Of a stretch of 64,000 nucleotides of DNA, positions 3,680 through 63,070 are shown piece by piece. Every line of letters begins with the position of its first letter. Position 1 is the first letter of the stretch. The stretch comes from Squalus acanthias (taxonomy: Eukaryota). The DNA is taken from NCBI GenBank assembly GCA_030390025.1, contig CM059447.1:19096001-19160000 (forward strand). The letters are read 5' to 3'. The notes below the pieces were generated by a model that was not told the origin of the DNA, made no database searches, and saw nothing but the letters and a program-made list of their open reading frames with translations. A program made the position numbers and the translations under genes.

Positions 3680-4294
3680 GGGCTGGATTTTCAATGACCC
3701 GTGGAGTCGGGTTTGGAGGAGTGGGGGGGGTTAAAGTTGCAGATTCGGGGGTCCCGGCCCCATCCCGACTCCACGCAATTTTGACAAAATCGGTCGCAGG
3801 GTTCCCGACTCCAAGAGGCGGGAGAGGCCATTAAAGCCCTTAACAAGCCCTAAATTGGCTCTATAATGCCATTTTGAAACGTTTTAGCTAGTTTAACCAT
3901 TTTCTGACGTGAAGTACGCCTGATGTGAAACACGCCAGTGAAACCTGGCGTGAGCACAAGTGGATAGCTGACTATCAGCTGCAGGTCCACTATTACAAAA
4001 AAAATTCTCTCTCTCTCTCTCTCTGAGATGCTGCTCATTTTGCATCCAGGTTCTCTCACAGCAAAGGCCAGGCAATCTCTGAGACCAGGCAGTCTCTGAC
4101 CTGCAATGATGACATCATCAGAGGCGACTTTCAGACTGAAACCACTAATTGGTTCATGGGTTCCCACATGCTGGAACTCAATTGCCCAATTAAGTGAAAA
4201 TTGCATCAATCTCCCACATCCAATTGCAGGCGGGTGGATAACACGAAATGCGGATGACACGACCCCAACCCGCCCCAGTATCAAAATCCAGCCC
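3680..4294. mobile_element. PIF/Harbinger-type MITE
   Basis: Perfect 12-bp TIR gggctggatttt / aaaatccagccc; 3-bp TSD GAA on both sides; non-coding. Confidence 0.85.
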
Positions 4295-5388: not shown

Positions 5389-6455
5389 TTTTTTTTATTC
5401 ATGGGATGTGGGCATTGCTGGTATGGCCAGCATTTATTACCCATCCCTAATTGCCCTCAAGGAGGTGGTGAGCCGCCTTATACAAATGAGTGGCTTGCTA
5501 GGCCATTTCAGAGGGCAGTTAAGAGTCAACCACAATGGGCCGGATTTTCCGACCCCTACGGGTGCGTACGCACCCGTAGGGGCCTCGCAAGTACCGGTTT
5601 CAGGCATGCGAAGCACATGCGCTGAAAACCGGCACTTGCGATCTGTCAAGAATTCTCTTGACAGACCATCCGCCTGCCCGGGAAAAGTGCCTCTGCGGGT
5701 GGAGAGTTGCGCTTTTTGCACAACTTCCGCCCGCTGAAAGGCCATAGAATTCTTACGCCTGGTAAAAGCAAACGTAAGGCCTGCTTTTACCAGCTTAAGA
5801 GTGTTGAAAAATAGAAAAATTAAATTTGATAACTCATTTATAAATTTAAAATACTCTTCAAAAAAGTTTATTTTCAGCCCCGTAAAAACATTTTTTTTTA
5901 ATTCAAAAAATTTAAAATTATTTTTTTAATTAAATGGAGTTTTAATTCATTTTAATTATGTAATTTAAAAAAAATATATATATTTTAGTGTGTTTTTAAA
6001 TGTGATCCCCATTCATACTTTTGACAGTTCTGTCCCTACAGACCTGTCAAAAGTGTAAAGGGGGATTCCCTTCTTCCATTGGCTCCCCGTGATCCCAGGG
6101 GCGCTTGCGAACCACATGCACCCCTGGGATACGTGGGCCTCTGCGCATTTCCAACAGGAGAGGCCCAAGATCATAAGCCTCGGGCTCTATGGAACCAGCA
6201 GGGAGGTTCGTAGATTTTTTTCCGATCGGAAGCATCCGCCCGCAGGAAGCCTCCGATCGGAAATTCAGGGCCATTGGTCTGAAGTCCCGTATAGGTTAGA
6301 CCGGGTAAGGACGGCAGATTTCCTTCCCGAAAAGGACATTAGTGAAACAGATGGGTTTTTAACGACAATCCGGTAGTTTCATGGTCACCAATACTGGTAC
6401 TAGCTTTTTATTCCAGATTTATTTAATTAACTGAATTTAAATTCCCCAGCTGGAT
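5389..6455 (-). mobile_element. SINE-like element with LINE-derived 3' end, split by a MITE insertion
   Basis: Reverse complement matches 63592-64000 and 30387-30731; continuity is broken only by the 5537-6272 insert. Confidence 0.8.
5537..6272 (+). mobile_element. Hairpin-chain MITE, copy 1
   Basis: Imperfect TIR gggccggattttccga / tcggaaattcagggcc; homologous to 24158-24919; nested in a SINE. Confidence 0.85.
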
Positions 6456-7610: not shown

Positions 7611-7795
7611 GGGGATAATTTTAACTTTGGTGATAGGGTAAAACAGGCGATATCAGTTTGGCTGCCTTTGTATCCCTCGCCAGATTTTCCTTTGTATTGA
7701 CCTCAATGGAAAGGAAAATCGGGCAAGGTGTATAACGGACAGCCGATGCCATATCACCCATTTCACACCAGCCACCAAAAGTTAAAATTATCTCC
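7611..7795. mobile_element. Foldback (whole-length palindromic) MITE
   Basis: Left and right ~90-bp halves are imperfect reverse complements (ggggataattttaactt / aagttaaaattatctcc); relatives at 6650-6795 and 56884-57057. Confidence 0.75.
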
Positions 7796-22670: not shown

Positions 22671-24157
22671 ACCATGTATTCTAAAAATGGAACTCATACT
22701 GTACAAAACAGACCTCTAAATGGCCAAATCTATCTCCAAAGGTCAGTTTTACACTCATTTGAGGCTTAGAACTGCAATGGCGACCCGATTCTAAAGCATC
22801 AAACTTACAGCAGGATGAGTTACCTCATCGATAGGTCCAGTCACTACCTCTCCAAGGCTAAACTATTCCAGTCACTACTTTATGAATAAAATGGTTTATT
22901 TTTTTTCACCAACAGTAGGGAAGAAATAAAGACTCTATTCATCTTCCTCATTCATTTTTACAATGTTTTGAACGTAACACAAAATGTCCTGTCATGTTCA
23001 TTCAGTGTCAGTACAGGAGACAGATTTTGAGTGAACATTTAATACAAAAATGCCACTTTTAGCATCTCTGTTGAACTTTTGATGAGCCAAGATATTTGCT
23101 GTGCCAGCCCCAAAAGTGAAGTATAGCTAGCGTAACCTTGATAATGCCAATGTAAGTGAGATCACATCAAAGTGGTGGTCTCCTATCAATGACAGCACCA
23201 TCAGAGCAGATTAGCTTCCTATAATGTATCATAATATAATAGCAGAATTATACTATTTTCCCAGCATACGTGTAAAAAAAAAAATTCACACAAACCCACC
23301 ACAACTGTTTGTTTCATCTAGGATTTGCCTTTTACGCAAAAAATTTTTGTGCACTTCTCCTTAATTGGCATTAAATAGGTCAATGTTTTAGGTATATTGG
23401 GATATTTTGCTGCAAACACCTGTAACATGTTTACTTCTTATAATGAATTAGCAGCTAGGTTCTGTTTTTAAACTTAATTGATGGAAAACGTTCTGCCTGA
23501 AAAACCACAACTGAAGTGGATCCTAATCAGGACTTTGATTAGAAAAGGCAGGCCTTTGGCTCGTCTAGAATTTGCTTTTCTGGGTACATTAATTTTTTTA
23601 ATTTCAGACCCAGAGCAGGATAACTTTACATACCGAATAAAATTCCCTCTATTGAATCCCAAATGACCAACAATCAATCAGAACAATGAATGAAAGTACA
23701 CAGAAGAAGATGGCCAACCATGTGTGCTATTAGAATGAAGAAGCACCAAACAGTAAGAGATTTACTGCTGTTTTGGAATAAAATGTGTCCTCCTGTAAAT
23801 GGGTTTCAATAAAATTATAAATAAACTTAGTTTTTGCTCAGCGTTTGTGAAGTAGCAACTCGGATGAAGTATGTGGTACAAGTGCTGCTCCCCGTTTGGT
23901 TTTTATTTACTGGCAATAACTCGATGGGTTCTGGTTAATATAAGCTGTTGTTACAATACAAATATCTTCCCATGTTTGTTCTGGTTATGGAGTGTCCTTG
24001 TTGTGCTGAATTGCATCAAGGTGCAGTACAGGAAAAATGCAAAACATGTTGGACATTACGGCAAGAGTATGCAGAGTCAGTGCCAAAGATCCATGCTGAC
24101 ACTGGAACTGGTGACGATTCAAATCTGTATCTTTTTAAAAAGGGCGTATCAAACATT

Positions 24158-24919
24158 GGGCCAGAAATTCGGGTCTCCACGGGTGAGTACGCGCTGTGTA
24201 CTCACCCGTAGACCCAACGAAAGTGCCGGTTTCGCGCATGCACTGCGCATGCGCTGGAAACCGGTACTTCCGTTCCCTTGAAGGAAGGGGTTCGGAGGTC
24301 AAACGCGTGCACCGGAGAGACAGCGCGCACGCATCGGACTTCCGTTTTTTTTTCAGGTTTCTGTGTGAGGGTAAGTCCCCAGCAGCTGCGCGGGGAAAAA
24401 GCAGGCGCAAGGCCTGCTTTTAACAAGGTAAGTGGTGAATTAACTAAAATTAAAACATTTTTTCCCACAGGTTTATTATTTTTAAATACTTTAAAGAAAG
24501 GTAAGTTTACTTTTAGCCCCGTTAAAAACTGTAACTAATTTTTTCAAAAATTTACATTTTTGTTTAAAGTAGTTAATGTGTAATTTATAGTTATTTTAAA
24601 AATGTGATTTTTAAAAAATTTATTTGAAGTTTTAGTGAGGTTTTGGGGCTGATCTCTATTCATAGATTTGACAGGTCTTCCTGTCAAATCTATGAATGGA
24701 GATTCCCTGCTCCGATTGGTTCTCCATGGCCCACGTGATCCCAGGGGACGCTTCGAACTAACTGCGCCCCTGGGATACGCAAGCACTGCACACCGGCAGC
24801 TGGAGCAGGCCCAGGATCGGAATCCCACGCGGGCCCAGAGCACAACGGCAGGCGCGGTAGGTAAGTGCAGGTTGGGGGCTTGCACCCCGCGGGAAGCCTC
24901 CGACCCGAATTTCTGGCCC
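24158..24919 (+). mobile_element. Hairpin-chain MITE, copy 2
   Basis: Perfect 18-bp TIR gggccagaaattcgggtc / gacccgaatttctggccc; CpG-rich arms with an AT-rich centre; homologous to 5537-6272. Confidence 0.9.
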
Positions 24920-26724
24920 AATAATGACTTCTCAAATCTGAATCTCAAATTGTGTGCATCCTGTGCTTTTTAATCAAACAGTTCAAGACTCTGTAAAATG
25001 GCACATAATCCAGGAATACAAAGCGGGGGGGGGGGGGAAAAGGGCACATAATGAACTGACGATTAACTTAAGATTTAACATTTAACAGTAACCCAACGTT
25101 GCAACCAGGTGGATTTCAGAATTTCCATTTGATTTCACTGGGGCAGCAGCCAGTAATTGCACACTCTCCAAAGCAGAGCCTCGACAAGAGTGCTACTGCA
25201 CTGAAGTCTAATGCCAGGAATGTAAACAGATAAGAATGCACAGTGTGCGTCAAAGTACATTATTAAACTACAACATTTTCTATCCGGTTTAATTTAGTTT
25301 TGCAGAAAGAAATACAGATTCATAATCCCTTTTTAAAAATAAACATCTTGGGCCACTTACTATCAGGATCCAGGCTTCCTTAGACAACATCCCCCTCCAC
25401 TGGACATTTTCTTTTTTAATTACAAAAACAAATTCACAGCACTATTTAATAAAGTTATTGCCAATTCTTTTCCTCTAATTGCTTAGAACCTGCTTGTATA
25501 CTTTTGCAAGTATGCAGCATCAAAATGTTGTTATACTTTTCTGCTTGCTGGAGTTTCCTGCCAAAACCTCTTCACCTTGCTACTTCTGTCCCCACCTTTT
25601 AAAGTCCCTTAAAACCGTGCCTTTAGTTATCCCTCCACTTTCACCCATTACTGCTCTGTGTCTGTACTCTACAATGTGAAGCACCTTGGGATATTTCATT
25701 ATGTTAAAGGCGCTGTAAAAATGAAAGTTGCTTGTTGGATATATCCAACTACATCACTGCAGTAATGCCCAAAAAGCCATTTAACAATTAGTTGTTAAAA
25801 CTTGTGTGTAATTATTTTCCCTATGGGGTTACATTTCAGCTAAATGTAAGCTATTTTGCTGGTAAGCAAATATATATTTTAGCTTCTATTTGCCTTGGTT
25901 ATCAAAGACACCTCTGGTGATTCATTACCACAGCACATTGGTATATCAACATATACCAACGGGGAAGGTTGGGAGGAGGCTTGAGTGGAGCATAAACGCC
26001 GGCATGGACTGGTTGGGCTGAATGGCCTGTTTCTGTGCTGTATATTCCACGTAATTATGTAGTGGAGTAATAGAACATAGGTTTGCACTCATTATTATCT
26101 ATGGAGAGTACTTGATGGGGAAGAAGAAGGATAATTTTTTTTTTTTAAAAGAAGCCTGCTTAAAATACACTTTAATCATGGCCTAGCAGGAGGTCTGTGC
26201 CTGCTCTTTTTGTGGGGACTTAAGTTGAGATTTTGAAAAACCCTTGTCCTTATTTGTTCTGTCTTGACAACAACTAACAATCACAAACCTCAGAATATGT
26301 TGTTACCCCATTTGGAAAATAAACTATGCTTTTATTACTTTGGTAAAGATACCTGCTTGCCAACTATTAGTTTGCTACTGTTTTAGAAAATGTCTCTTAA
26401 TGTTCCACTAACGGTAGCCAACACACAGGACATTTGATTTGTCGAGTCTGCTCAGTTCTCAATTGGGTCTGTGCTGAGTGGGGAAGCACTGGATGAGGGA
26501 CCGGTGTCTCCTGCAGGAGTGAGGGAAAAACTCAGATGCAGCGCACCCTGGGCACTTGGTGACTGGCCAGCGAAAGGCACTGGCCTGAGAGTAGATTACC
26601 GAAACATTCTTTTGACAACTGAGGCATACGGTGGGGAATGGAAATAAGTGCGCATATTTAATGGATGGTAAAATCCCAATTTTTTTTTAGTAGCCATGAT
26701 GTGTTGGACTGGGGTGGACAAAAG

Positions 26725-26864
26725 TGAGAAGTCGCACAACACCAGGTTATAGTCCAGCAGCTTTATTTGAAATCACAAGCTTTCGGACGAAGGAGCAGGG
26801 CTCTGAAAGCTTGTGATTTCAAATAAAGCTGTTGGACTATAACCTGGTGTTGTGCGACTTCTCA
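26725..26864. repeat. Near-perfect inverted repeat (60-bp arms), Penelope-like pLTR derivative
   Basis: Arms 26725-26784 and 26805-26864 differ at one position; loop and right arm read gacga-aggagc-agg-gctct-gaaa-gctt (hammerhead-like core). Confidence 0.85.
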
Positions 26865-27499
26865 ATTTTTTTTTTTTAAATAAGGGGTACAGTTTTCATA
26901 TGAAAATTCTGCTTGATCCTCCTGGAAACTATCTTTGCTTTGTTTCTTTTTAACTATTTATCGATGTCCATGGCATTACATATGGGAAGTGAAGATCAAG
27001 TGTAGTCTTCCAGTGAAGTGCGATTAGAGGGTGGGGGATAATTGGTCTAGACTGCACAGAGGTAATTCGATCCCTATTTTACAGTCTTACATTCTGTCCT
27101 TATTTTGTATAATACTTTGATTTTATACAATTTATAGTTAAATAGCAAAACTTACAGCAATTTGAAGTTGTTGGCCGGAGCATAGAAGTTTCTCTGCAGT
27201 ACAAGCTGAGTTTGGAAATACAAAACTGAGGTGCCACAGTGCCACCACTGACGTGAGGGTGTAATTGCAGCATGACAAGTTTACATAGTCAATTTCCATT
27301 ATAAATGTGACACATAGCAATTTATAATGGGAAAAGTTGACAAGGTTTTGGTTTTGTCGATGGGAAATGCATGCAGACACAAGATTTTATACATATAGAT
27401 GTATTGTAACAAAAAAGAAAAACTTAATGGGTACTTGTAAGCCGAAATCAATCAGGCTAACTAGAATCTAGCTTAAGTAAATTTGCTTTGAACACATAC

Positions 27500-50368: not shown

Positions 50369-50769
<401 letters not shown>

Positions 50770-54063: not shown

Positions 54064-54582
<519 letters not shown>

Positions 54583-62521: not shown

Positions 62522-63070
<549 letters not shown>

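Follow-up and report, generated by a model that had tools for sequence, protein, structure and literature searches.

Tourist-like MITEs, of which rice mPing and zebrafish Harbinger3N_DR are the closest described examples, combine TIRs, a 3-bp TSD and an extended palindromic target preference with a partner that encodes a DDE transposase and a Myb-like protein (PMC2836001 and PMC4482050, as far as their available text extends). The Squalus acanthias family described here has all of these features in common with them. Its TSD, however, is AWT rather than TWA, it carries an ordered series of covarying 8-30-bp stems, and its consensuses, uniform in size at 743-765 bp, are above the <500 bp quoted for MITEs in the accessible part of PMC4561436. 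Internal sequence modulates the mobility of mPing, with no structural requirement described in the available text of PMC9921582. The Pangu group resembles the present family in its ANT-type 3-bp TSD and in a TIR beginning GG, but its second ORF is without a known motif and no vertebrate host is listed for it in the accessible part of PMC4482050, whereas the partner identified here has a Myb/SANT domain. Among vertebrate Harbinger MITEs, Harbinger-N12A_XT of Xenopus tropicalis is comparable by description, as it contains internal palindromic repeats and NRF sites that are enriched at open chromatin; it is 342 bp long, and the available text of PMC12676858 reports no covariation analysis. The literature searched, to the extent of its accessible text and outside Repbase, Dfam and most subscription papers, held no description of the present family or of natural mismatched Harbinger duplications.

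Positions 24158-24919 of the window, the 64-kb stretch of DNA that was analyzed, are almost certainly occupied by a member of the Harbinger superfamily (PHIS), and as an element class this Harbinger MITE is an ordinary one. The GG-starting TIRs are common to an autonomous element, that partner has a Harbinger-type DDE transposase, and the 3-bp TSD lies within an extended target preference; the element is non-coding and its copy number is high, with 540 exact genome matches to its last 24 nt and 1878 exact matches to the right end of a second subfamily (C). The initial annotation had described a non-coding TIR element, as borne out by the 18-bp TIRs and by a Pfam search of its two overlapping ORFs that returned no match. 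It had also proposed an uncharacterised mobile module, a description that gives way to a non-autonomous Harbinger-superfamily element with H1 and H2 inherited from an autonomous left end. Near full-length matches at 94-96% identity were found at 39 of the 40 best-scored genome places, in addition to the window copy itself, which differs by 1.7% from the subfamily A consensus. The diverged copy at 5537-6272 belongs to subfamily B, a sister of subfamily A, and a global alignment of the two window elements is identical in 516 of 805 columns. In runs of eight organisms at least 0.41 of the sampled subfamily words were present, and the subfamily is therefore not restricted to one species. The family was also seen in three runs presumed to be RNA, with a depth profile resembling that of a DNA run, no usable splice joint, and contigs that carry no strand or end information. 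A search for an empty site of the 24158-24919 copy found none. The mixed flanks had suggested ISL2EU (AT TSD), Spy (no TSD) or Crypton, all of which are out, as empty sites gained 3 bp and a Harbinger partner was found.

Table 1. Coordinates of features in and around the two window elements.
Feature	Position	Strand	Basis
Full-length non-autonomous Harbinger-superfamily element, subfamily A, 762 bp	24158..24919	+	best 40 scored matches, exact end matches, consensus
Left target triplet ATT	24155..24157	+	sequence; family target AWT
Left TIR, 18 bp	24158..24175	+	first 16 nt identical to autonomous L095
Segment homologous to autonomous left end, upstream of transposase ORF	24158..24415	+	82% over 259 columns to L095:3212-3458
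H1, perfect 12-bp stem shared with autonomous elements; both sides changed in 3 pairs	24179..24209		copy alignment, consensuses
H2, stem that contains a palindromic hairpin (24234-24254); shared with autonomous elements	24216..24274		sequence, copy alignment
H5, 10-bp perfect stem, edge of autonomous-derived segment	24397..24421		consensuses
AT-rich block between H5 and H6 (approximate boundaries), with splice-donor-like motifs at 24427 and 24500	24422..24651		sequence, motifs
H6, 24-bp stem with the most covariation (8 pairs in the five consensuses); absent from sampled autonomous elements	24652..24703		consensuses, locus search
Reverse CCAAT-like and E-box-like motifs, in 5/5 consensuses	24715..24737		motif search
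H7, 10-bp perfect stem	24738..24776		sequence
Segment homologous to autonomous right end	24821..24919	+	78% over 99 columns
Right TIR, 18 bp	24902..24919	-	sequence
Right target triplet AAT, middle base mismatched against left ATT	24920..24922	+	sequence; family statistics
Subfamily B copy, 736 bp, flanks AAT/ATT, inside an older repeat whose empty copies have ATT	5537..6272	+	alignment, empty sites

The window also holds a long near-perfect fold-back with ~70-bp arms (26720-26869) and a shorter one (50641-50716), two more TIR elements with GGG starts (3680-4294, flanked GAA/GAA, and 7611-7795), and, on the - strand, thioesterase and KR domain exons (54064-54561 and 62522-63034) that probably come from the 3' portion of fatty acid synthase.

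Autonomous ends were sought by extending 20 transposase loci among PF13359 matches without an internal stop, which are abundant in the genome (146 of 150 scored matches). The 4.7-kb autonomous element L095:3212-7883 encodes a DDE_Tnp_4 transposase (PF13359, E 8e-43, 146 bits) and, in an opposite-strand ORF, a Myb_DNA-bind_5 (Myb/SANT) domain (PF13873, E 7e-14). It matches element positions 1-258 at 82%, with the first 16 nt identical, and positions 664-762 at 78%; H1 and H2 are present in the left ends of autonomous elements, while, among 90 transposase, left-end and Myb loci searched, the H6-H7 core turned up solely in MITE copies. Because family ends are shared with, and apparently captured from, autonomous elements, the gene-less element probably uses a partner's transposase and Myb-type DNA-binding protein and would be mobilized in trans. 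The Myb protein of Harbinger3_DR reportedly binds short subterminal palindromes. Within PHIS, the dominance of AWT departs from the TWA of the strict PIF/Harbinger group although the Myb/SANT second ORF agrees with it, and the triplets, mostly AAT and ATT with some ACT and AGT, agree with the ANT of Pangu although the Myb/SANT domain does not agree with its motif-less second ORF (PMC4482050, accessible part); with the TWA test and the test for an ORF2 without motif both failing, we claim no PHIS subgroup. Another autonomous Harbinger family in the genome (L099-L105, L109) has TIRs that start with GGGGG and direct duplications that vary, and at L102:2379-9894 an in-register inverted repeat of >80 bp brackets ~7.5 kb that include a Harbinger transposase.

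Five subfamilies with mutually 54-81% identical consensuses were sampled, for a total of 233 copies: 36 of 39 loci for A (three duplicates dropped), 25 of 30 for B, 120 of 130 for C (nine partial, one duplicate), 21 of 30 for D and 31 of 31 for E. The A, B, D and E loci and 40 of the C loci are best matches and thus biased to conserved copies, and the remaining 90 C loci are exact matches to the right end, drawn from the 1878 in the order of their genome positions. On average, copies diverge from their consensus by 2.8, 5.6, 1.5, 7.6 and 2.5% for A to E, respectively; subfamily C (the L097:1312-2051 family) is the youngest sampled.

The flanks of these copies are AWT in a symmetric target, with a flank bias that is symmetric to ~9 nt, and empty sites align without gaps once one triplet is removed. 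Exact direct triplets, non-AWT ones included, flank 128 of the 233 copies, and swapped AAT/ATT duplications occur in all five subfamilies, in 45 of the 153 copies that have AWT at both ends. The two elements of the window are each of the swapped kind (24155-24157/24920-24922 and 5534-5536/6273-6275). The 120 copies of subfamily C comprise 72 with direct triplets, 27 with AAT/ATT or ATT/AAT and 21 that are otherwise mismatched, 20 of which have AWT on one side; 27 of 91 AWT insertions (~30%) are mismatched, against 0.16 swaps expected from mutation, and ~2 other mismatches would be expected. Swapped copies show no greater age than direct ones (p=0.78), and 5 of the 23 youngest copies are swapped. 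Where mismatched copies had ungapped empty-site matches (26 copies), the top triplet equaled one flank in 15, seven times the left and eight times the right, and 11 matched neither clearly. Copies at non-AWT targets have AWT, not the reverse complement, on the opposite side, as at L159 (AAG/ATT), L302 (AAT/GTT), L215 (AAT/ACT) and, weakly, L234 (ACT/AAT).

These patterns make it probable that an excised element brings its 3-nt donor overhangs to the new site, where the mismatch would be resolved by replication, and a donor origin of one side is likely for the mismatched triplets of 24158-24919. Two subfamily A copies with inverted non-AWT flanks, L008 and L009 (ATA/TAT, AAG/CTT), do not fit overhang carry-over. 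In piggyBac, staggered-cut overhangs can reportedly arrive at the new site, according to a study of its non-canonical insertions. Excised mPing offers a parallel, as staggered cutting in the TSD has been proposed for it (PMC4561436) and donor triplets have been seen in nuclease-targeted insertions (PMC11254759), consistent with 3-nt overhangs able to reach a new site; however, free transposition is said in the available text of PMC11254759 to yield intact duplications, in contrast to the ~30% of natural AWT insertions mismatched here. Other origins of the swapped triplets were considered: fold-back correction or in-place inversion is disfavored by the lack of a reverse-complement partner at non-AWT targets in subfamily C, and later ectopic conversion by the finding that swapped copies are not older.

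The internal architecture of the element is dominated by stems. H1, H2, H5, H6 and H7 all lie where the initial annotation had placed them and have homologous counterparts in 5537-6272; the H1 stem of that copy was confirmed as well, although its missing loop is a private 11-bp deletion, as the subfamily B consensus has a 7-nt loop. At the core of H6, 18 bp are perfectly paired (24658-24697), and H2 contains one G-T pair (24221-24269). Seven stems scoring at least 8 were found in the subfamily consensus, whereas 30 region-wise dinucleotide shuffles averaged 0.53 such stems and never gave more than 3, and the 762 bp of 24158-24919 hold 6 stems versus 78 in the whole window. Folding z-scores of the element, TIR included, are -13.1 for DNA, -18.9 for the RNA + strand and -12.4 for the RNA - strand. 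No motif common to the arms of H1, H2, H5, H6 and H7 was obvious, and thus the site of a single protein cannot account for all stems. H5 is weak in subfamilies C and E and part-deleted in D, and the degradation of H5 and H7 in the young and successful subfamily C indicates that neither is strictly required. The CCAAT-like and E-box-like motifs at 24715-24737, and an NRF1-like motif, are predicted sites. Among other TIR elements of the genome, hairpin density ranges from 1.6 to 10.8 per kb, with 12 hairpins in the 1109 bp of L109:7674-8782, 8 in the 841 bp of L107:7223-8063 and just 1-3 in several others.

Symmetry of the stems is maintained between subfamilies. In H1, H2, H6 and H7 of the five consensuses, 23 of 53 pairs vary, 17 of these by two-sided and 6 by one-sided change. 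The copy alignment gave two-sided change in 9 of 33 pairs of H1+H2 (score 0.163 versus 0.082 shuffled) and 13 of 39 pairs of H6+H7 (0.236 versus 0.103), scores that were reached by none of 500 shuffles and compare with slid controls of at most 0.09, although the shuffle comparison is inflated by the relatedness of copies and by the choice of stems that pair. Five masters were compared in all. Changes per site among consensuses are 0.47 in stems, 0.76 in loops, 0.61 in the AT-rich block and 1.07 at other GC-rich sites, and this slower change of the stems (0.47 versus 1.07) argues that neutral symmetrization alone is insufficient. Some paired changes are clustered, with three adjacent ones and two more nearby in H6 of subfamily D, and subfamilies B and D carry a self-complementary 10-nt loop insert.

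Within subfamilies, by contrast, the landed copies decay at random. The 233 copies contain 1083 single changes and 30 compensatory doubles versus 29.7 expected, with no excess of paired change, and private mutation rates are alike in and out of stems (for example, 0.0030 and 0.0031 in subfamily C), which together indicate that symmetry is made or kept in transposing lineages. The compensatory changes that the initial annotation had reported between copies are thus real paired changes but lie between subfamily masters and not sister copies, and its suggestion that template-switch palindrome correction homogenizes copies found no counterpart in resident ones, where the 30 doubles against 29.7 expected rule out ongoing correction. 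Inherited variants may be fewer in stems, but the depletion is significant (p=0.003) only under a circular stem definition; once corrected, the test gives an odds ratio of 0.76, with p=0.11 for the three young subfamilies.

The stems also mark the limits of exchange with autonomous elements. Over TIR+H1+H2, subfamily C agrees with the autonomous L094 (and also L093) in 106 of 114 nt, but past this block the agreement falls to 47 of 116, and the closer match there is subfamily E with 99 of 116. Judged from these alignments, subfamily C is a recombinant, its first 114 nt (TIR+H1+H2) apparently captured from an autonomous subfamily and the remainder derived from MITE subfamily E, and the boundary of the captured block is the exact end of H2. 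Across TIR+H1+H2, 101 of 114 nt agree between E and L107, and 106 of 114 between A and L115. TIR+H1+H2 would accordingly seem to be an exchangeable unit matched to the partner, and the core appears to descend in the MITE lineage; the alternative to end exchange is that unsampled autonomous ancestors had the core. Some family copies carry, in their AT-rich block or left part, insertions of other family members and of autonomous elements (L009, L030, L098, L108).

We lean toward the interpretation that the hairpins are DNA-level symmetric cis-signals kept only in lineages that are still moving, and that their variants likely originate in fold-back copying. Rare fold-back (template-switch) copying would probably generate new symmetric variants, as the clustered paired changes and the self-complementary loop inserts of B and D suggest, and such variants may spread because symmetric ends and core are better mobilized, whether because proteins bind the paired sites or because cruciforms can extrude. 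A function for the stems is suggested by their slower change and by the capture boundary at the end of H2. The observations leave two readings: either selection acts on symmetry at the DNA level in lineages that are mobile, or correction goes along with transposition.

A neutral by-product is unlikely, though it explains several observations. Fold-back correction in the gap repair that amplifies cut-and-paste elements would symmetrize any short inverted repeat in the masters, and the hairpins would do nothing. Clustered multi-base paired changes, as in H6 of D, and the loop insert of B and D are expected on these terms, as are the absence of strand bias and a corrected inherited-variant test that is not significant, but stems change at half the rate of other GC-rich sequence, the 233 resident copies are without excess correction, and the captured block stops exactly where H2 ends. 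Doubtful in our estimation is a more specific proposal in which fold-back shape, and not sequence, is the cis requirement: H5 and H6 cruciforms beside the AT-rich block would, with H1-H2, shape the transpososome, and a long-lived parasite lineage would keep the core, swap in the TIR+H1+H2 of an active partner, and insert in the style of piggyBac with donor overhangs.

It is improbable that the stems represent structured RNA, whether a 5' leader on the transcript for the transposase or a regulatory RNA derived from the element. The left end does lie upstream of the transposase ORF and retains splice-acceptor and donor-like motifs, the + strand of 24158-24919 folds better than the - strand, and one H6 pair of subfamily C, G-C in A and E, is polymorphic between G-T (68 copies) and A-T (51 copies). 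However, the lean of unique stem mismatches to the + strand (18 G-T, 10 A-C and 27 other) is not significant (18 versus 10, p=0.18), of 25 region-wise RNA folds, 12 favor + and 13 favor -, H6 and H7 are absent from sampled autonomous elements, and an Rfam search of the window gave no match at the gathering score. The one-strand folded RNA of the initial annotation finds no support in these strand tests, and their null outcome weakens the RNA reading. The splice-acceptor- and donor-like motifs, at 24350-24376, 24427, 24466-24506 and 24860, outline 14-nt and ~30-nt mini-exons, with one donor in all five subfamilies. We consider it very unlikely that the stems are paired host transcription factor sites from the element's two promoters, which would keep copies open and reachable and owe their symmetry to dimeric binding, as, despite the NRF1-like, CCAAT-like and E-box-like motifs in all five consensuses and the NRF sites of the Xenopus MITE with internal palindromes, the conserved motifs lie mostly in loops and between stems, and H6 changes sequence at 8 of 16 pairs yet stays paired, which is hard to reconcile with a fixed host factor.

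Our preferred interpretation, that of symmetric DNA-level cis-signals, bears on the open question of why some MITEs out-amplify their autonomous partners, and the five subfamilies, together with near-intact partner genes and natural compensatory variants, make the issue of sequence versus symmetry directly testable. The mismatched duplications provide genome-scale support for staggered TSD cleavage and overhang carry-over in Harbingers, hitherto inferred from plant elements, and annotation that relies on TSDs would overlook approximately one-third of such insertions.
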